From a virus (Duplodnaviria > Caudoviricetes): a DNA stretch of 64,000 nucleotides. Below the pieces are notes generated by a model. The model did no database searches. It was not told the origin of the DNA and worked only from the letters and a program-made list of their open reading frames with translations. Every line of letters begins with the position of its first letter. The stretch's first letter is position 1. Both the position numbers and the translations under genes were made by a program. Positions 1 through 61,854 of the stretch are shown here, piece after piece. The DNA is taken from positions 1 to 64,000 of the IMG/VR virus record IMGVR_UViG_2585427591_000001, one strand, 5' to 3'.

Positions 1-292
1 TGTTTCTCATCCCGCCGCCACATATTTCGTTCGCGCAACAGGAATGAGCATGATGGATGCCGGGATCTATGAGGGTTCGCTGTTAGTCGTTGATCGGAGT
101 CTGCGGGCAAAGCATGGGGATATCATCATTGCGTCGATTGCGGGTGAATACACTGTTAAACGCTTATGTCTGGAACCCGTCGTAAAGCTTGTGCCGATGA
201 ACCCCGATTTCCCGCCGATAATCTTGCATGACGGCGGCGACGATCTTGAGGTGTTCGGCGTCGTGACGTTCAGTATTAACGGGTTTCAGTAA
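1..292 (+). CDS. umuD: UmuD, DNA polymerase V accessory subunit (S24 peptidase), 5'-truncated by the window
   Basis: Open frame from base 2 ([21 protein letters not shown]...GEYTVKRL) with catalytic Ser and Lys motifs; its stop overlaps the umuC start. Confidence 0.93.
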
Positions 293-1557
293 TGTTCGCA
301 CTGGCTGACGTGAATAGCTTCTATGCCAGTTGCGAGACCGTTTTCCGGCCAGACTTGCGCGGGCGGCCGGTCGTCGTTCTCAGTAACAATGATGGCTGCG
401 TAATTGCTCGCAGTGCAGAAGCCAAAAAATTGGGGATCAAGATGGGTGATGCGTTTTTCAAAATGCGTCACGAATTTGAACGTCACAATGTCGTTGTTTT
501 CAGTAGTAATTATGCGCTGTACGCTGATATGTCACACCGTGTTATGACCGTTTTAGAAGAAATGAGCCCGCAAGTCGAAGTTTACTCAATTGATGAAAGT
601 TTCATGAACCTGACCGGTGTCAGTAACTGTAAGAACCTGGAGGAATTCGGCCGCGAAGTCAGGGCAAAGGTTTTGCAGTGGACGGGGCTGACCGTCGGTG
701 TGGGCATCGGGCAGACTAAAACGCTGGCAAAGCTGGCTAATTACGCTGCGAAGAAATGGACAAAGACGGGCGGTGTTGTTGATCTCTCGATGCTGGCGCG
801 GCAACGTAAATTAATGGCGCTGGTTGAGGTGGGAGAGGTCTGGGGCGTTGGCCGTCGCATATCGAAAAAGCTGAATGATATGGGAATTAAAACCGCGCTA
901 CAGCTTGCAGATGCCCCGACAGCGCTTATACGGAAGCACTTTAATGTAGTGTTGGAACGTACAGTGCGTGAACTGCGCGGTGAGCCGTGTTTAGAGATCG
1001 AGGAGTTTGCGCCAACAAAACAGCAGATCGTGTGTTCACGGTCATTCGGTGATCGAGTAACGGAATACGACTTGATGCGCGAAGCGATCTGCAGTCACGC
1101 GGTCCGGGCAGCTGAAAAACTCCGGGGCGAGCGTCAATACTGCCGGCACATCTCGGCATTCATCAAAACCAGCCCTTTTGCCGTAAATGAAGTCTATTTC
1201 GGCAAGACGGCCGGAACAAAATTACAGACGCCAACGCAAGACAGCCGCGACATAGTTGCCGCTGCAACGCAATGTCTGGACGCGATCTGGAAAGATGGGC
1301 ATAGATTTCAAAAGTGTGGCGTGATGCTCGGTGACTTTTACAGCCAGGGCGTCGCGCAGCTGGGGTTATTCGACGAATACCGGCCGCGCGCGAACAGTGA
1401 ACAGCTGATGGCCGCACTGGATGGCATCAACCACAGTGGCAAAGGCCGGGTATGGTTTGCCGGGCAAGGAATACAAAGAAGCTGGGAGATGAAGCGAGAG
1501 ATGCTTTCCCCGGCTTACACCACGCGTTTCAGTGATCTGATGCGCGTGAGGATTTAA
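292..1557 (+). CDS. umuC: UmuC, Y-family DNA polymerase V catalytic subunit
   Basis: [32 protein letters not shown] and C-terminal LSPAYTT motifs. Confidence 0.97.
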
Positions 1558-2023: not shown

Positions 2024-2731
2024 CTACACCAGCGGATCATTTATCGGCTCGATCAGTGCCGGCGTATTATTCCGAACGCTTCCCACCTGCTTACCTACCG
2101 GGTGCCACTTAAATTTACCGGGTGGTACCGCTTCCTTCTGAGCGATTTCAAGCGCGCGTGCTGGCGCGGTATCGCTGTTCAGCCATTCCAGCGCCTGCGC
2201 GCGATCCAGAACGAGTGGCCGGCGGTCATGGATATCGAGTAACCCCTCATCGCTTGCGGCCGTGACGATAACAAAGCCGTCATCTGCTGGCGGCTCGGCG
2301 GCATCCGGGTGGAACCGGCTAATCGCTGCGAAGAACAACGGCGTATGCGATTTGTGGTAGATGAAATACGGCTGTTTAATTTTCGGATCCGCGGGGTCCT
2401 TCTTCCATTCATACCAACCGTCGGCCATCACCAGCGCGCGGCCGTTCTCAAATAGCGGTTTAAACATGCGGCTCGTTGCCACCGTTTCGACGCGCGCATT
2501 GATCATCGGCGGCCGCTTTGATTCCTTCGCCCAGGCGGGCTGGTATCCCCAGTGAACGGGGTCCAGGTAGATCTGATCATCCCGTTGGTTCAGTAGAAGA
2601 ACGCGTGAGCTCGGTGCCACGTTGTAGCGGTCGATGGGTATATCATCTATTGCGCTGGCGAACTCCTTATCAGGGGCCAGGACTTCGATGTAATGCGAGC
2701 GGGGCTCGTACTGGGTGAAGCGTCCACACAT
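2024..2731 (-). CDS. yedK: SOS response-associated peptidase (SRAP/YedK/HMCES family abasic-site protecting protein)
   Basis: N-terminal MCGRF, RYNVAP, INARVET, GWYEW and IHDRRP motifs. Confidence 0.95.
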   Translation of the reverse strand: MCGRFTQYEPRSHYIEVLAPDKEFASAIDDIPIDRYNVAPSSRVLLLNQRDDQIYLDPVHWGYQPAWAKESKRPPMINARVETVATSRMFKPLFENGRALVMADGWYEWKKDPADPKIKQPYFIYHKSHTPLFFAAISRFHPDAAEPPADDGFVIVTAASDEGLLDIHDRRPLVLDRAQALEWLNSDTAPARALEIAQKEAVPPGKFKWHPVGKQVGSVRNNTPALIEPINDPLV

Positions 2732-5124: not shown

Positions 5125-5776
5125 CTTGATAAATTCCATTTTTAAAAGTGAGGCATAACGTTATGCCTCAATGTCTTGGCATACAATAAATTGGTCTGTA
5201 AAAATGTAATTTTCAGAAGTTTATTATTGAGGATCGAGCGTCATTGCTGGCGCTCAATAGGGAAGGGGGTAAATATTTTAAAAAGTGGATGCGCATCCTT
5301 ACAAAAGGGTCGTCCTAGCGGTGCTATGTACGCCGCAGGGGGATAATAGGTGAACCGGTGCATTAATAAAGTAAGCCGTTCAAATGTTGGAATGCGCCTC
5401 GCAAAATATCCACCTTCTTAATTAATAATCATGTTGCTCATGTTTAAACTAACCCTGGCGGATACATTCCGTATGATTTGGAATGGCCGGAATTTGATTT
5501 AAGTCACAAATATTTAAAGTAATTAGGGTGAGTGTGGGGCGATAAAGCGCGTTTTAACTTGAAAATAGCGGTTTATTATTGGCGTGGGATATATATATCG
5601 ATGCTAATATAGGGTGGTTGTATTTTATTTCAGGCTATATATTCGTATTAATTATGGTTCAAGAGTAATGGTGGCGCGATTGTGGCCGTATTCTGGGCGT
5701 TTGCGGGCTGGCATCTTATAGGCCGGTTGTCACAACCTCAGTCGCGCCGCCACCCGCTGAGCGCTATCACGCAGGT

Positions 5777-28772: not shown

Positions 28773-28991
28773 ATGTTTTTCAGTAAAAAACTGCACTATT
28801 ACGTTTGCTCATTTGCAGGAACTGAGCGCGGCACTATTACATCAGTCGTCCTTCGGTACCCTACCGAAGGCTTCACGCAACCGCGTCAGATCCAGGCGCG
28901 TCGCAACGCTGGCCTACCGGACGATGCGTCCATTTTTTGTGTTTCATATCTCGGCAAAATGAGCCGGAAATATTATGAAACTACAATGTGA
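28773..28991 (+). CDS. Hypothetical protein
   Basis: GGAGG RBS. Confidence 0.7.
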   Translation: MFFSKKLHYYVCSFAGTERGTITSVVLRYPTEGFTQPRQIQARRNAGLPDDASIFCVSYLGKMSRKYYETTM

Positions 28992-29439
28992 ACCCTGCGC
29001 AATGATCACAAGTAAAAACGAAACAGATAACAGTCCGTTTCGTATTAAGGTCACGTCAAAAGAGATTGCTGATCTGCTACTGAGCACCAAGGATTTTCTG
29101 ACCACGCGCGAAGTAGCCAACGAGCTGCGAAAGCGTCACCCCCACCGAATTATCGTTGTTAACGATATCTATAAGCGCCTGGTTGAATTTGTCAATTCAC
29201 CCAACGCACATTGTGTAGTCGACACCTCGACAAGACCGAGGCGTTTCCGTCTATACAATATATATCCCGTGTATTTCGTCGAATTAAGAAGACAATTAAT
29301 GAGAAAAGGTGCGCCCATTGAGGAATTACAATGCATTCCTTCAGTCGCACCTGATGAAGAAAAGAGCAGAAGTGTTAAAGAAATTCTTGCATTATGGGAT
29401 ATGTTAGTAAGTAACCGAAATAGTATTAAGCGTATGTAG
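28975..29439 (+). CDS. lpa: Late promoter activator Lpa
   Basis: VTSKEIAD...DIYKRL...DTSTRPRRF matches recalled P1 Lpa (ITSYEIAD...DVYLRL...DDSTRPRRF); lies upstream of pacA. Confidence 0.85.
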   Translation: MKLQCEPCAMITSKNETDNSPFRIKVTSKEIADLLLSTKDFLTTREVANELRKRHPHRIIVVNDIYKRLVEFVNSPNAHCVVDTSTRPRRFRLYNIYPVYFVELRRQLMRKGAPIEELQCIPSVAPDEEKSRSVKEILALWDMLVSNRNSIKRM

Positions 29440-30358
29440 ATATAGGTTTATTCTTAAATTGATGCAATAAATCTTCATATATCGATAGTTTATGACTGCC
29501 CAGGTGATAACTTAAATATATGGAATATCGTTCAAATGACAATTCATCGGGTAACCAGAGTAACGCTATTTGATTATTACAAAATTGTTTCAACTGAACA
29601 GCAATATTGTATGGGACAATTGAGATAAGGAGACTTTTCCCGATGATATGCACGATATTGTGCAGTGATTCCGAATAATAAACGTCTCTCTGCTTTAACT
29701 TCCCCATGAACTCCGTGTTCAGATCAGTGCTCAGAATGGTGTATCGTGAAGGAATGTTATGCGTAACGCGGCCAGCGGAGTGGAAAGCATAAAGTGAAAG
29801 TTTACCCATCTCTGCGAGAGGGTTTTCCAGACTGCATAGCGCAACATAGTGTTGAAAAGTATCAACGGTATGACATGCGATATCTTTCGCGGTGACGGGA
29901 TGATGGCTAAGCACTATTTCATTTGTAGAGTTATATAGACGTTGTGAAAGTTCAATAGTATTAGTCTTGTTAATCATTTCGACTGAAATACGGAATTTGT
30001 CATGCATTGACAATAACCCTGAAATGTAATGCACCTCACAATAATCGTGAGTGAGGATTCGTAGAAGTGGAGGACAATCCATCTGTTTATTTTCTAGCGT
30101 CTTATTTATTAATGATTCCGCAGCATGAAACGCGGCATCAATTTCAATCGCACGCGCTGTCGGCTTTAAACCAAACTGTGTTCTCGTAAATAATTCCTCA
30201 TTATAAATCCTCTCAAGTTTCTGAAGAGATAGCGTCACGGCCGAAGGCGTTACATTAAGATATTTTGATGCATTCGTGACGTTTCCTGATGTTATTACGA
30301 CGCGCAAAATCTTGAAAAGATTAAAGTCAAAATCACCTGGCTTGTAGCAATAGCGCAT
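29426..30358 (-). CDS. LysR-family transcriptional regulator (AT-rich insertion)
   Basis: DFNLFKIL...NVTNASKYLNVTPSAVTLSLQKLE...LFTR...PTARA. Confidence 0.88.
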   Translation of the reverse strand: MRYCYKPGDFDFNLFKILRVVITSGNVTNASKYLNVTPSAVTLSLQKLERIYNEELFTRTQFGLKPTARAIEIDAAFHAAESLINKTLENKQMDCPPLLRILTHDYCEVHYISGLLSMHDKFRISVEMINKTNTIELSQRLYNSTNEIVLSHHPVTAKDIACHTVDTFQHYVALCSLENPLAEMGKLSLYAFHSAGRVTHNIPSRYTILSTDLNTEFMGKLKQRDVYYSESLHNIVHIIGKSLLISIVPYNIAVQLKQFCNNQIALLWLPDELSFERYSIYLSYHLGSHKLSIYEDLLHQFKNKPISTYA

Positions 30359-30446: not shown

Positions 30447-30781
30447 TGATCAGCTTAAGTGATCACAAGAAAGATCAAAACAACTGATCATTGATCGGGT
30501 GGAGTTTCTATAAGCTAACCTTCTTAGAATGTGACTAAAGAAGGTTTGGGTGTCATGAATGAGTAGGGATGTCTGGGTTTTTCACATTGAAAACTATGGA
30601 AAAATGGCGCGTGAGACTGGCGTCACTATTGCTGCGTATGCTGAAATCCATGGACTCAATCCGAACACCTGCCGCCGCTACTTCAGGAAGCCAAAAGAAG
30701 GCGATAAGCCCTTAAAAACAATAGCAAAGCCTCAGAAAAAGAAAAAACTGATCACTGATCGCTCTGATGATCTGCTGATCA
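30447..30781. other. Putative pac site: two clusters of GATC hexamers
   Basis: Five GATC in 30447-30497 and four in 30749-30781, mostly TGATCA/G as in P1 pac. Confidence 0.7.
30523..30537 (+). promoter_or_regulatory. Putative C1 operator upstream of pacA
   Basis: CTTAGAATGTGACTA preceded by AACC, as in the copies at 10297 and 28697. Confidence 0.6.
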
Positions 30782-31770
30782 CTAAGGACGAACAAAAAAA
30801 TCAAAAAAAAATAGACCGTAAAATCAAAGCGATAAAGGAGGTGGAAGCGCGCGAGGCCCCACTTTGCGGCGGAAGAGCGTTTTACGATAAAGACGATAAA
30901 TTGATCAGGTACGTTAGCCCCCCGCGTGGCACCACCCGAACCCAGTTTCAGCCCGGCAATAAAGCCAGTGTCGTTTACGGCCGTTACTCCACCCCGACAG
31001 AAGAAGACATCACCAAAGCCCAGGAGTTGATCGAAAACGGAATACTCGATTCACTTGATGAGTTTCTAATTTCCCAGAACCTTGCACACCTCATGTTAAT
31101 TAGTCGGTCACGCGATCGGTCAATCGCCATCTTTGACGAGATGGAAGCAGAGCGGCAGAAACTATTGAACGTGCAGAGCAGCAAGAAGAAGAAAGCTGCC
31201 GATGTTGAAGCGGCCCCGCAGCAAGACGTACCTAACGAGTTCAAAAAGTTGGGCATGCTCGTTAATGCGTCGGAAGCCATTTACGGGATCACTAAAACTC
31301 TCTCCGGGATGCGCAATAGCATTGAAAAACGTAGGCAGGATGATGACCGCCGGGATGTGGAAGAGATGGAACGTGTGATCATTCAGCGCGCATTTGAATA
31401 CCAGGTTAGCGAGTCATGGACCGCATTTCAGACCGCGGCTTATATAGAAAAGCAGGGTATCAAAATACCGGCGACGCTCTTAATGCAGGTGCAGGCCGAA
31501 CTGAAAACCCCACCCCCTGTTGAATCTGGACGTATCGATGAGGACGAGCTCGAACGGCAGGCGCGGGAGTATAAAGACAGGCAGTTGGCCGCCGCGTCTA
31601 ACATCGAGGACCGGCGTAACGCTGTTTCGAACCTGGTTGATAGTGGTGGCTATGGCGACATTGACCAGACTGGTGAAGTGCGCGCGGATATGAACTTCGT
31701 GGAAGAAGAAGACGATGACGACTGGGATGAAGACGCGACAAGCGAGTATTACGACGGGGATGATGATTAA
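30559..31770 (+). CDS. pacA: Terminase small subunit PacA
   Basis: [33 protein letters not shown] and acidic YDGDDD C-terminus as in P1 PacA. Confidence 0.92.
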
Positions 31771-33266
31771 TGCCAAGTGGCCGCCGAAAATTACGCTCGA
31801 TTACAAGCGATCCTCGTTACCGGGAGCTGGTCATCAAATACCGGTACAACTGGGGGCTGGCCGCAGTCCACCTGTTTAGTAAAACCCCCACATGGCAACA
31901 AGATGAAATCTTAAATTCAGTGCAGGAGATGGCAAGCCGAACCACTGTTTCGTCCGGGCACGGTACGGGTAAATCAGACATTGCCAGTATTATGGTCATG
32001 CTCTTCCTCATCCTTTTCCCTAATTCACGCGTAGTCCTCGTCGCAACCAAAATCGGCCAGGTTAAAACCGGTATTTTTAAATACATCAGACAAAACTGGG
32101 CTGTTTGTACGCAGCGTTTCCCATGGCTATCTGAATACTTTGTGCTGACAGATACGGCCTTCTATGAAAAAACGCAAAAAGGGTCTTGGGAAGTTATTGC
32201 TAAAGGCTTCCGCCAGGGCAATGAGGAAGCGCTGGCCGGTGAGCATGCAAAGTACCTGCTGTACATAGTCGATGAAGCGTCAGGGGTGAATGATAAAGCG
32301 CTGGGCGTTATCCGCGGCGCACTCACACAAGAAGATAACCGCCTGCTGTTGACGTCTCAGCCTACACGTCCATCCGGTCACTTCTACGACTCGCACCACA
32401 CCCTCAAGAAGTACAAGGGCAATAAGAATGGTATTTACAACGCTATCACGCTTAACAGCGAGGATTCACCGCTTGTTACGCTAAACTGGATACGCGAAAA
32501 GCTGGCTGAATACGGTGGCCGTGACAGCCCCGAATACATGATCAAAGTCATGGGCATGTTCCCATCGAATATGTCTGATTACCTTCTTGGCCACGACGAG
32601 TGTGATCGCGCTGTACGGCGCAAAGTAAAACTCAAGAAGGGCTGGGGCTGGATGGCGTGCTGCGACGTTGGGAACGGTCGGGATAAGTCAGTTATCGGTA
32701 TCTTCAAAGTGTCCGGGTCGCGTGAGAAGCGCCGTGTAGTTCCACACCGCGTCTTGGAGATGCCCGCTGGTGTGGACCCGGTAAAATTCGCAGAAATTAT
32801 CGTGGCTGAATGCCGACATTCAGTGTATCCGAACATCAGTATTGTCATAGATGGAGATGGTGTTGGGGCGGATACTGCCACTCTTGTAGAGCGCGCCGGC
32901 ATGCCCGTTCAGCGCATCAGATGGGGTAAGCGCATGCACTCAAAGAATGACAAATCACGTTTCATTAATCAGCGTGCGTGGGCAAATATCATGGCCCGTG
33001 ACGCGCTGCGTAGCGGCCGCCTGCGACTGGATAACAATCCACTTACTGTTGAACAGGCATCAAAAATACCGGCAATGCTGAACGAACTCGGCCAGTGGCT
33101 CATCATGAAAAAAGAGTACATGCGCACTAAGCTGAATCTCAAATCTCCAGACCGATGGGATGTGTACTGTTTCTCGTTTATCGCGAACTATGTCCCCGCA
33201 AACCAGGACAACTTCTACGATAGTGACGAAGACAGAGAGGCGCGCGAGTATCTCAATGCCGGCTAA
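31770..33266 (+). CDS. pacB: Terminase large subunit PacB
   Basis: SGHGTGKS Walker A, IVDEASG Walker B, CDVGNG and KSPDRWD nuclease motifs. Confidence 0.95.
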
Positions 33267-34072
33267 GCCTGATCATTGTCATTTTTGGCGCGGGTGAGCC
33301 GGGCTTTATATGACTTATGTTTCTTTTCGGCGCGGCGAACGTCGCGGATATTCTCTTGATAATCGCGCGTTGCAGCTTCAAGCGTTTCAAGGTCATAGAT
33401 TTTCTTGTTGATAAACGCGGCGCAAGGAATTGGATTTATTTCAGAATAAATGGAGAATCCTGGGTTTTCATCACCGTTCGTCACGCCTGAACGATCCAGG
33501 TCTTTCTCGCGTATGAATACACCATGGGAGGGGACGTGAATCTTCTGTGGTTCGCTATTTTCGTGAAAGTAAATATTCATCATCATGTCGCTAAAACCTT
33601 CATGACGAATACGAAATTTCGCTTCCGGGTCGTACTTGCCGAATCGTTCTAAATCAGCAGCAATTGCCGCATGCAATGTTGTGTCGCCAGTCTTAATAGC
33701 ACGGCTCAACGCGTAATTAAGCATGCTGAATAATTTTTCACGCGTAACTGTTTTGGAGTCCACTGCTTTATAGGTATACACCCGCGCAGCCCTGACATTT
33801 GTGAAAAGCAGGGGGAGTGGGTAAATGTCTTTTGAAGTCGTTGGGTATCGCTTCGGATCAGCTTCGAGCAGGGTACTTGCGTATGTTTCCCATTCCTTGA
33901 TTTTACCGGCCCAATACTGAAACTTTTCTTCGGAAACGACTACAACGGGCCTGAATTCAATACCAAAAGAGTCCGCGTCGGTAAAACTTGCAGATTCCAG
34001 TGCTTCAGCTTCAAAGTCGCTTTTGAAAACGATAAACGATTTGTATGTAGTTTCAGTTTTGGTTCTTAACAT
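33263..34072 (-). CDS. c1: Primary repressor C1
   Basis: [30 protein letters not shown] and KIY motifs match recalled P1 C1; convergent with pacB as in P1. Confidence 0.9.
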
Positions 34073-34209
34073 TCAGCGCACCAATAATAAAAACAAAGAA
34101 AAATGTAACGTTTTTCAATTACCACTTTGTGTAAGATTATAAGTGATCTGCGCGTAATGAAAGAACAAAAGCACTAACTTAGGTAACAAACAGCATCATA
34201 GGCTATTTG

Positions 34210-34416
34210 TTATCGTAAAGTCGTATCATATATTTCATGAATCTGTGCGAGTAATTGTGCGTAACAATCACAATCCCCTTGGCACTCACAATAATAGTCA
34301 GTAGCGTACAGTCTTCCCGAAATCGCCTCTATAAAAGTAGGATCCATCACCGATAAACGCATTTGCATGCGGACGTTCTCAAGCTGAGTCAATGTCAATG
34401 GCTGCTTAGTTTCCAT
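34210..34416 (-). CDS. Small acidic protein at the coi (C1 inactivator) position
   Basis: 68 aa, AAGGAA RBS, upstream of c1; positional assignment only. Confidence 0.55.
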   Translation of the reverse strand: METKQPLTLTQLENVRMQMRLSVMDPTFIEAISGRLYATDYYCECQGDCDCYAQLLAQIHEIYDTTLR

Positions 34417-34618
34417 TGTTGAATTTCCTTATTGATAGGTGATTAGTAGAGACCCAGTAGATCATTATCTTACGCATTCAAGGTAAGGTAATTCCAATCC
34501 ACACAAGGATTAACATTCCGTTAACTCTAATAATTTTCCAGCCGAACAACACATAAAAGCCATGAATAAGTGATATCAAATTGACACACATAGCATCACC
34601 TGATATCACGATTTCTCA

Positions 34619-34652
34619 CAAACATCATATAATAGTAGTTATATTACCTTAA
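34619..34652. other. Candidate lox-type recombination site
   Basis: CAAACATCATATA-ATAGTAGT-TATATTACCTTAA in 13-8-13 layout; arms match loxP arms at 9/13 and 8/13. Confidence 0.5.
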
Positions 34653-34663
34653 CAGTGACAATA

Positions 34664-34678
34664 TAGCCAAGTTCTAAG
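34664..34678 (+). promoter_or_regulatory. Putative C1 operator between the coi-position ORF and cre
   Basis: TAGCCAAGTTCTAAG. Confidence 0.7.
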
Positions 34679-34746
34679 CAGATGACCCTACGTGAATTCT
34701 ATCCGATAGCGGAAGGGTTTACCCTGTAAATTTCAAGGAGCGGAAC

Positions 34747-35754
34747 ATGCAGCTAATCCACCTTCCCACTCAGATCGGCAACACATTAGATGCCGAAATA
34801 ACGCGCAGCCTAAAGAATTTCATAGAAGACAAAGAAGCCTACGCTGATAACACCTGGCGGCAGCTGATGCATGTATTTAGAACGTGGGCGCGCTGGTGCT
34901 GGGACCACGGCTATCCATATCTGCCTATCGAGCCGTCGCATTTGCGGGAATATGTGCTCTTTATGGGTACGCGTTACAGCGTGAACAGCATCACGCAGCA
35001 TATGGCATTGCTCGGCATGCTGCAGCGGCAGGGAAACTTGATCCCCGCAAATCAGCACCCGGACGTGATCCGCGCACTGAAAAAAGTGCGCCGTCTGGCC
35101 GCTGAATCAGGTGAATATACGGACCAGGCAATCCCTTTTTCTATCCACGATTTACGCACCGTGGCCGCAGTCTGGAAAGGTTCAGACAAGCTGGCAGACG
35201 TCCGAAATCTGGCGTTTTTGACCATCGCTTATCACACTCTTTTACGACTGAGCGAAGTGTCTCGCCTGACTGTTCGCGACTTCACTCCCGGTAAAAATGG
35301 CATGGCGACACTGTTTGTCGGCCGCACGAAAACCAACTTATCAGGCGACGGCACGCTCAAAGCGTTAGGCCGTTGGGCAACTGAAATCGTACTGGAATGG
35401 ATTGATAAATCAGGGCTTTCAAACCACCCGAACGCCCTGCTTTTCTGCCCCATTCACCGCACGGGTAAGCCACTAATCACTGAAAAACCGTTGTCGACTA
35501 AAAACATCGAGCGCATATTTTCTTCAGCGTGGGACGCAGTGAACGATGACCGGGAAACCACTGAAACCGGCCGTTACCAGACGTGGACCGGCCATAGTCC
35601 CCGCGTCGGCGCGGCAGTTGACATGGCAGAACGCGGCGTAAGCCTTCCCCAAATTATGCGCGAGGGAGGCTGGAAGAAACCGGAAACAGTTTTACGGTAT
35701 ATCCGGCGCAAGGAGGCCTTCACTTCCGCTATGCTGGACATTGTTGATGAATAA
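34747..35754 (+). CDS. cre: Cre-like tyrosine recombinase
   Basis: AYADNTW, RNLAFLTIAYHTLLRLSE, RTKT, WTGHSPRVGAAVDMA, GGW, RYIR: all catalytic R-K-H-R-W-Y residues present. Confidence 0.93.
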   Translation: MQLIHLPTQIGNTLDAEITRSLKNFIEDKEAYADNTWRQLMHVFRTWARWCWDHGYPYLPIEPSHLREYVLFMGTRYSVNSITQHMALLGMLQRQGNLIPANQHPDVIRALKKVRRLAAESGEYTDQAIPFSIHDLRTVAAVWKGSDKLADVRNLAFLTIAYHTLLRLSEVSRLTVRDFTPGKNGMATLFVGRTKTNLSGDGTLKALGRWATEIVLEWIDKSGLSNHPNALLFCPIHRTGKPLITEKPLSTKNIERIFSSAWDAVNDDRETTETGRYQTWTGHSPRVGAAVDMAERGVSLPQIMREGGWKKPETVLRYIRRKEAFTSAMLDIVDE

Positions 35755-60832: not shown

Positions 60833-61854
60833 AAAAAATTATATGGATGCAGGGTTTTAACCATTTCCCAGAATTTTCTGGCGTTACGCCTGCTGAAAAA
60901 TTTAAGGGTTTTTTGAACCGATTCGCCATTCTCCCAGGCTATGAGTGTAATATTGCGTCTGCTGCAAAAATAGGAACGATGACTTTTAATGGTGTGTCAC
61001 ATAAAGGCCTTCTAATTTGTACGCAGGGAACTCAGTCAGTGTTTTCAGTGAGTATACCTTGGGCGGGCTCAAACACAGGCAAGCGCGTCTACTATGGCGC
61101 ACGTGTGTCTGCATCCGACACAGTTCAAGGTGCGGATCTCGCAGTAATAAAAAATGATGCGTCTACTATGCTGGCTACGATAAAAGCATACGGCAAAAAT
61201 GATGATTACTTTATTGAATGCGTAGTCGATACAGAAAAAAAGGTGGCGAGTTTATACGCAAACAGAACCCTAATTGGGACAGTATCAAAGTATTCGACAT
61301 CGAATTATTTGAATTTTTTCCTCGGTTCTGATGCCACATATTCACGGGCATCCAAGTCAGGAATTGGCATTTGCTGGTCTGATTTTTATTACGCAGAAGA
61401 AGAAATCGATGGCACACAAGGTGAACCTGACGTCTACGGAAATATTTTTATCGATTCTCAAGTTGTTTCAACATTCGAAGGTAATAACGACTATTACAAT
61501 ACAATGGGTATTGATATTGTCGAAGGCCTGAATGCTGTAATCGACATAAATTATGCGGAATCGAGCGGCTATTTGCATGTACCAGAAAGCGTGGGAACGC
61601 TCACATACACACCCGCAGATTTTGAAGCTTCGACGGCTGTAGCTGCACAGATTTCGAGTTACGTTCTCCCGTCGTTTGAAGATTTTGAAATAAAATCAGA
61701 CGTTTTCATTAACGGCATTCCAGAAGAGACAACCAAAAGTAAGGTGTCCTCGGAAAGCGGTGCTTATTACACGCAATATGATGTTATAAACCGCGAAGTG
61801 AGCGTTGAAGAAATCAATTCATTATCTGTAAAAATAGAATCAATAACGAGATAA
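60829..61854 (+). CDS. AT-rich beta-rich putative virion accessory / lectin-like protein
   Basis: ATGA-coupled to gp16; IIWMQGFNHF N-terminus; YFIECVVD...LYAN...SDFYY pattern suggests a ConA-like fold. Confidence 0.65.
   Translation: MKKIIWMQGFNHFPEFSGVTPAEKFKGFLNRFAILPGYECNIASAAKIGTMTFNGVSHKGLLICTQGTQSVFSVSIPWAGSNTGKRVYYGARVSASDTVQGADLAVIKNDASTMLATIKAYGKNDDYFIECVVDTEKKVASLYANRTLIGTVSKYSTSNYLNFFLGSDATYSRASKSGIGICWSDFYYAEEEIDGTQGEPDVYGNIFIDSQVVSTFEGNNDYYNTMGIDIVEGLNAVIDINYAESSGYLHVPESVGTLTYTPADFEASTAVAAQISSYVLPSFEDFEIKSDVFINGIPEETTKSKVSSESGAYYTQYDVINREVSVEEINSLSVKIESITR

Follow-up and report, generated by a model that had tools for sequence, protein, structure and literature searches.

The locus considered here raises the following question: a gene for a Cre-like recombinase is preceded by a 34-bp segment that has the arm-spacer-arm geometry of a lox site, while its two arms are clearly unequal. 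The segment could be the native target of the adjacent enzyme, a formerly symmetric site in decay, a hybrid of two sites, or AT-rich regulatory DNA. Cre-type recombinases are standard genome-engineering tools, so that every new orthogonal pair of an enzyme and a site is useful, and the site in question is unlike loxP or rox. The window, that is, the whole stretch of DNA analysed (64,000 nucleotides), is the initial 64-kb part of a virus record of 86,652 bp (IMGVR_UViG_2585427591_000001) with 95-bp direct terminal repeats, which is estimated to be complete. The features of the region, in window positions, are listed below.

28975-29439: Lpa-like activator
30559-31770, plus strand: pacA-like terminase gene (phrog_1711)
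31770-33266, plus strand: pacB-like terminase gene (phrog_2/5902; 76-77% identity to the related loci L001 and L003)
33263-34072, minus strand: homolog of the C1 repressor, 269 aa (tblastn to the P1-group c1, ~29% identity, E = 3e-23)
34210-34416, minus strand: small ORF of 68 aa between c1 and the site (37-38% identity in L001 and L003)
34619-34631, plus strand: left, gene-distal arm CAAACATCATATA, with T at position 7 and TATA beside the spacer
34632-34639, plus strand: asymmetric 8-bp spacer ATAGTAGT, the presumed crossover region, following the family pattern (starts with AT, ends with T)
34640-34652, plus strand: right, gene-proximal arm TATATTACCTTAA (reverse complement TTAAGGTAATATA), an arm of the clade type
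34632-34661, minus strand: weak leftward sigma-70-like match (TTGTCA, 18 nt, TACTAT; 9/12 matches), overlapping the spacer and the right arm
34689-34701, plus strand: motif CTACGTGAATTCT between the site and the start codon, invariant in the alignment with L001 and with one change in L003
34747-35754, plus strand: Cre-family tyrosine recombinase P0001, 335 aa (PF00589, E = 2.7e-19)

The recombinase ORF is an open frame, and its ATG start is preceded by AGGAG. Residues 12-334 of the product align with residues 17-340 of Cre in the PDB Cre chains (E = 4.3e-70), which, together with the PF00589 match, amounts to full-length two-domain homology to Cre. The catalytic residues R-K-H-R-W-Y (Cre R173, K201, H289, R292, W315, Y324) are all present, and the set is complete in 138 of the 139 aligned sequences. 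The protein is 36.2% identical to P1 Cre and 45.0% identical to D6 Dre. All 28 phage records that match it show less than 60% identity; among plasmids, two from Enterobacter kobei match best (65.6%), ahead of those from Xenorhabdus and Pantoea (~44-48%); and the nearest cluster in a large protein collection is 68% identical, the window protein itself being a singleton. No closer relatives were found by protein in metagenome contigs, or in E. coli genomes, and none above approximately 66% DNA identity was found in the plasmid search; one sequencing run (X2) holds a ~92%-identical relative across the site region, on a contig of roughly 1 kb that covers 34510-35038. To judge from its sequence, the gene at 34747-35754 is an intact Cre homolog and a new member of the family, in agreement with the original prediction, which had described a divergent, intact Cre-like recombinase.

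The order of genes in the neighbourhood (lpa-like, pacA, pacB, c1, small ORF, site, recombinase) is that of P1 immC, and it is identical on both flanks of the site in the E. kobei plasmid and in an IMG/VR relative. The C1 homolog also matches D6 C1 (BLASTP, E = 1e-19) and phrog_1678. The small 68-aa ORF, for which Pfam and PHROG searches yielded no family match, occupies the position of coi in P1. A Rep3-type initiator (Rep3_N, 26.5 bits) and a ParA-type ATPase are encoded elsewhere in the genome, so that the immC layout is combined with replication and partition genes, as in the plasmid prophages of the P1/D6 type; the rest of the genome contains P1-type tail genes (sheath, tube, baseplate), as well as DarA-like and ddrB-ParB genes. 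Given these tail, DarA-like, ddrB-ParB, initiator and ATPase genes, the genome is, by its gene content, that of a P1-like phage-plasmid.

Several further elements were seen in this genome. A LysR-type HTH protein (PF00126) is encoded at 29426-30358 (minus strand), in the interval from the lpa-like gene to pacA; a DciA-family gene occupies this position in the E. kobei plasmid, hence this is variable cargo in a conserved late-gene region. The phage also carries a UmuC-like Y-family polymerase (IMS domains; 292-1557, plus strand) and an SRAP (SOS-response-associated peptidase) gene (2024-2731, minus strand). An inverted repeat, GGTAACAAACAGC-ATCATAG-GCTATTTGTTATC (11/13), is located at 34182-34214, upstream of the c1 homolog and overlapping the stop codon of the small ORF. 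The genome contains no other copy of it, so this is not an operator of the dispersed C1 type, but it could be a local operator or terminator.

The 34-mer CAAACATCATATA-ATAGTAGT-TATATTACCTTAA at 34619-34652 lies in intergenic DNA beside the gene, with 94 bp between its end and the recombinase ATG; the original prediction had placed a 13-8-13 site approximately 95 bp upstream. The left arm agrees with the lox arm of the P1 record NC_005856 at 9/13 positions, the right arm at 8/13, and the two arms agree with each other at 8/13; all three counts, recomputed against this record, are identical to those given initially. Both arms have TATA at the spacer end and T at position 7, the combination of a TATA-like motif at the spacer and T7 which is described by Jelicic et al. 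(PMC10250229) as shared by active Cre-type sites. Positions 3-13 of the right arm are identical to those of the left arm of L001 (an E. kobei plasmid) and of the right arm of L066/L067, and this 11-mer has a single occurrence in the genome at up to one mismatch. Neither a second copy nor a half-site of either arm was found in the genome, except for one 11-mer with one mismatch at 61775. The site is known from a single genome.

Inverted repeats of at least 8/13 with an 8-bp spacer are present at 571 of the ~86,600 genome positions, and as a bare inverted repeat the segment is at the chance level. It is absent from the output of a repeat search with default-like settings, because it is too asymmetric. 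For a comparison within the family, we gathered 73 viral and 68 genomic loci encoding relatives of the recombinase, plus the E. kobei plasmid. When the 800 bp upstream of the gene are examined, the best inverted repeat in nearly all relatives is a lox/rox-like one, with 13-8-13 geometry and 11-13 of 13 positions complementary, approximately 150-400 bp from the gene. A weight matrix was constructed from 76 unique sites at 122 loci, the window being excluded and 17 loci without a repeat of at least 11/13 being dropped. With this matrix the segment scores 28.5 bits, compared to 4.2 bits for the runner-up in the 86.6-kb genome, and the maximum over five whole-genome shuffles is 9.7 bits. Against the local AT-rich background the score is 22.5 bits, which is reached by none of 1000 dinucleotide shuffles of the intergenic region 34417-34746 (maximum 13.1). 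When four relatives with similar arms are left out, the site still has 19.4 bits, again with 0 of 1000 shuffles reaching it. The value of 28.5 bits is below the median of the sites from which the matrix was built (41.2).

An alignment of the region in relatives, proposed as a check in the original prediction, gives a consistent picture. When the region is aligned pairwise with the E. kobei plasmid, the site stands out as a conserved island in poorly conserved intergenic surroundings. At the aligned position the nearest two relatives have near-perfect lox-like repeats, AAAAGGTAATATA-ATGGCACT-TATATTACTTTAG and AAAAAGTAATATA-ATGGCACT-TATATTACTTTAG, the combined form for the E. kobei plasmid and the IMG/VR relative being AAA(G/A)GTAATATA-ATGGCACT-TATATTACTTT. 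The core TATA-AT...T-TATA is common to all sites of the recombinase family. As for a better inverted repeat elsewhere that could serve as the target, there are 35 matches of at least 11/13 in the genome (spacers 4-10), and none of them has a lox-like core. Thus, by the uniqueness of the match to the family matrix, the alignment with the repeat of the relatives, and the immC context, the 34-mer proposed initially as a candidate is classified as a lox-type site.

The degree of asymmetry was assessed using the best upstream matrix match for each gene, with the loci ordered by the recombinase tree. A credible site, defined by a score of at least 10 bits, is present at 131 of the 138 loci; at the other seven there is no recognizable full site. 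The arms of the credible sites have no mismatches between them at 25 loci, one mismatch at 57, two at 30, three at 16, and four at one locus (of 13 positions in each case). Five mismatches are observed at two loci, the window and L122 (an Erwiniaceae genome), although this rarity is approximate, as the sites used to train the matrix were nearly symmetric and asymmetric ones in relatives may have been under-detected. Considering positions 3-13 only, the window site has three mismatches, and among the credible loci the same is observed only for L122 and L129. The asymmetry of the window site, which the original prediction had pointed out, is genuine and extreme.

The site at L122 is CCTTCTTGATATA-ATAAGCAT-TATATAAAGTTAT, and there, too, the gene-distal arm is the deviant one. 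At L102 ([Erwinia] mediterraneensis), 139 bp upstream of the gene, one good arm is followed by a partial spacer (ATGACTTTATATA-ATGGGCGA) and the other arm is missing; this looks like a truncated or recombined lox-type site.

The published pipelines for the discovery of Cre-type systems accept at most two symmetry-breaking mismatches (PMC10250229; PMC4957104). The window site does not have near-perfect arms in this sense (at most two asymmetries), and would be missed by both pipelines because of its five mismatches. Searches for near-perfect palindromes miss real members of the Cre family. One of the half-sites may be too weak.

In the recombinase tree, the window sequence groups with two E. 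kobei-type sequences (support 1.0); this group, L005/L083, and L077 form a clade of six (support 0.999; support of the internal branching 0.5). The arms are AA(A/G)GTAATATA in the sister clade, ATAACTCCATATA at L005/L083, and ATTACTTTATATA and ATAGCTTTATATA at L077. In the window, positions 3-13 of the right arm are AAGGTAATATA, while the left arm, AACATCATATA, differs from it at positions 5, 6 and 8 and has one mismatch to the common Pantoea-type arm AACTTCATATA. With the family matrix, 16.4 bits come from the left half of the site and 5.4 bits from the right half. The site, compared with its relatives, reads as a chimera, in which the distal arm resembles both the outgroups and the consensus of the family, whereas the proximal arm belongs to the derived, sister-clade type. 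As the recombinase is the sole PF00589 match in the phage genome, a second tyrosine recombinase of the phage as a partner for the odd arm is ruled out.

Across the 131 loci with credible sites, the amino acids at Cre positions 259-260 vary together with the nucleotides at arm positions 5-9. The pair P-A is accompanied by CTTTA (on one or both arms at 70 of 71 loci, and on both at 65), R-A by CTTC(G/A) (on one or both arms at 34 of 36 loci, and on both at 29), K-P by CTCCA (2 loci), and K-N by (A/G)GTAA (4 K-N loci other than the window, and the right arm of the window site). The window protein has K-N at these positions, and we infer that the proximal arm is the better-matched half-site. According to PMC4957104, K43, R259 and G263 of Cre are experimentally supported specificity residues. 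The residues at 43/259/263 are R/K/R in the window protein and T/K/(A or P) in the sister clade, and the specificity of the enzyme is probably different from that of its sisters. The fit of the proximal arm is therefore not assured, as positions 43 and 263 differ between the window and the sister clade.

Two observations concern arms of the same kind at other loci. L066 and L067 (IMG/VR; 41% identity to the window protein) have arms CAAAAGTAATATA and TATATTACCTTTG and K-N at 259-260, as in the window clade, and their spacer, ACACCCAT, is that of L005/L083; this suggests convergence, or an exchange of the specificity region along with the site. The sister genomes have an extra arm-like motif, GATATTACTT, where the small leftward ORF starts, ~190 bp to the left of the lox-like site (L001, about 5630-5650; L003, about 2640-2655); no counterpart was seen in the window.

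One close parallel is P1 Cre/loxP, with which the window system shares full-length homology of the recombinase, the six catalytic residues, the 13-8-13 geometry, the plasmid-prophage genome, and a site flanked by the c1 side and the recombinase gene, pacA/pacB lying upstream. The differences are as follows: the loxP arms match each other at 13/13, whereas the window arms match the loxP arm only at the 9/13 and 8/13 positions given above; the window site is 94 bp from the gene, as opposed to ~420 bp in P1, and there is no cra-like ORF between them; and residues 43/259/263, R/K/R in the window, are K/R/G in Cre. In P1, the leftward promoter P2coi is situated directly to the right of lox. In most relatives, the spacer starts with AT when read in the direction of the recombinase gene, while P1 (NC_005856; L145, L147) reads GCATACAT toward cre, with AT on the gene side; relative to its gene, the P1 lox site thus seems to have the opposite orientation to that in most of the family.

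Among named recombinases the closest is D6 Dre (45.0%), and in the Dre/rox system, too, the site is upstream of the gene and beside c1. The rox arms are ATAACTTTAAATA and CTAACTTTAAATA, and each window arm matches the left rox arm at 8/13 positions; unlike the window protein, which has K at position 259, Dre has P. Much closer is the system of the E. kobei plasmids NZ_CP156932 and NZ_CP104726 and of IMG/VR 2600254917, which represent the sister clade (66-68% identity), are syntenic, and have a site at the aligned position. The type of the right arm and K-N at 259-260 are shared with the window. However, the E. kobei-type sites have 0-1 mismatches at positions 3-13, compared to three in the window, their spacer is ATGGCACT rather than ATAGTAGT, and residues 43 and 263 differ. 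No characterization of an E. kobei-type recombinase or site was found in the literature searched, and the arms of this type are absent from one supplementary file of PMC10250229. Finally, Panto/pox and the YR series (Karimova 2016; Jelicic 2023) are, similarly to the window system, Cre-type systems of Enterobacterales plasmids with lox-like sites beside the gene, and the Pantoea plasmid homologs are ~44-48% identical to the window protein. In contrast to the window site with its five mismatches, these were selected with at most two symmetry-breaking mismatches.

Taken together, these comparisons identify a Cre/lox-type module in a P1-like plasmid prophage; both its recombinase and its native site are new, and the site is unusually asymmetric. 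We consider it probable that the window contains the immC region of a P1/D6-like plasmid-prophage myovirus, and that the 34-mer is the native lox-type target of the adjacent recombinase. In P1, Cre/lox is responsible for the cyclization of terminally redundant infecting DNA and for the resolution of plasmid dimers. By analogy with Cre/loxP, each 13-bp arm would bind one recombinase monomer, two sites would synapse as a tetramer, and strand exchange would take place within the 8-bp spacer and require no accessory factors; the recombination would cyclize the terminally redundant infecting DNA and also resolve plasmid dimers before partition. The enzyme would either have unequal affinity to the arms, compensated by co-operative loading, or possess a somewhat relaxed half-site specificity. 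The asymmetry would be stable, since a crossover between two identical copies regenerates the same site. Both recombination at the 34-mer and orthogonality to loxP and rox are at this stage predictions from sequence.

A bolder version of this reading, which we put forward tentatively and regard as doubtful, is that one Cre-type enzyme whose half-site recognition is dual or relaxed productively recombines a site with arms of two types, and that the locus is a snapshot of a specificity change proceeding one half-site at a time. The distal arm would then retain the form of the outgroup or family consensus (AAC.TC), the proximal arm would be the derived one (AAGGTAA), and the enzyme would be a natural homotetramer acting on an asymmetric target. 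At present, according to PMC8789052, recombinases for asymmetric genomic targets need engineered heterotetramers. If two half-site types are indeed recombined, the system bears on the co-evolution of recombinases and their targets, and could inform the design of recombinases for asymmetric genomic targets. Should the distal arm, on the other hand, simply be a weak half-site, the system would add just another ordinary case to a family in which hundreds of members have been predicted.

It is unlikely, in our opinion, that the site is decaying, that is, that it once was a symmetric lox-like one, the distal arm has drifted, the recombinase barely acts on it, and cyclization and dimer resolution rely on homologous recombination or host systems. 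Such a history would be in line with the asymmetry of 5/13 being the extreme of the 131 loci, with the drift of arms even between the close relatives L001 and L004, and with the existence of relatives that lack a recognizable full site (7/138 below 10 bits; the half-site at L102). On the other hand, the three deviating positions do not represent random drift toward the local composition, and the left half, supposedly the drifted one, outscores the right half (16.4 vs 5.4 bits) and retains T7 and the TATA core. The intact recombinase with all catalytic residues is a further, weak, counter-argument. Besides, Cre still recombines lox sites with one mutated arm (lox66/lox71), which also counts against decay.

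Less likely still is the origin of the site as a hybrid, by a crossover of two lox-type sites that joined the left arm and flank of one lineage to the right arm and recombinase of another. The type of each arm is indeed attested in symmetric natural sites, and identity to the sister clade is much lower for the genes on the left side of the site (c1, 39%; small ORF, 37-38%) than for the recombinase on its right (66-68%). However, the synteny with the relatives is unbroken on both sides, and between the sister genomes c1 and the small ORF are 70-73% identical, compared to 87% for the recombinase, that is, they diverge approximately twice as fast. The difference between the left and right sides therefore fits fast-evolving immunity genes. 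The hybrid origin is also at odds with the fact that no natural site with two left-type arms was found beside a Cre-like gene.

The scans for arm patterns gave the following results. The candidates for a symmetric donor of the left type (11 pattern matches in viral contigs and 21 in genome contigs) all are AT-rich chance matches, with no Cre-like gene nearby. One record, L157, contains a perfect palindrome of the left-arm type, but there is no Cre-like gene in its 67 kb (26% complete). The right-arm pattern matched at least 116 times in metagenomes, at least 29 times in viruses, and at least 120 times in genomes, and none of the 265 matches listed is situated beside a Cre homolog.

It is very improbable that the segment is solely a promoter or operator, AT-rich regulatory DNA for the divergent c1-side and recombinase transcripts with no recombination: the region does have a G+C content of 36% vs 50% in the genome, the segment contains TATAAT, a leftward promoter-like match overlaps the site, and P1 lox has promoters on both flanks, but the sigma-70-like scan of the region yields four sites, which is not significant compared to 3.4 expected from shuffles, the segment, with its exact 13-8-13 register, the core of the family and an arm of the clade type, has the 22.5 bits that 0 of 1000 shuffles reach, and a regulatory role would be compatible with recombination. 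Of the caveat in the original prediction, that the segment might simply be a promoter, the notion of a mere -10 box does not hold, as the core is conserved throughout the family, while the site may have an additional promoter role.

Between the site and the start codon, the motif CTACGTGAATTCT has counterparts at 5884-5896 in L001 and about 2881-2893 in L003. In the nearest relatives it is accompanied by an inverted partner, TTTACGTAGCG, located nearer the start codon, and in D6 GTAGCGTCA is located directly upstream of dre. Motifs of this type may be a shared regulatory element of the Cre-type genes.
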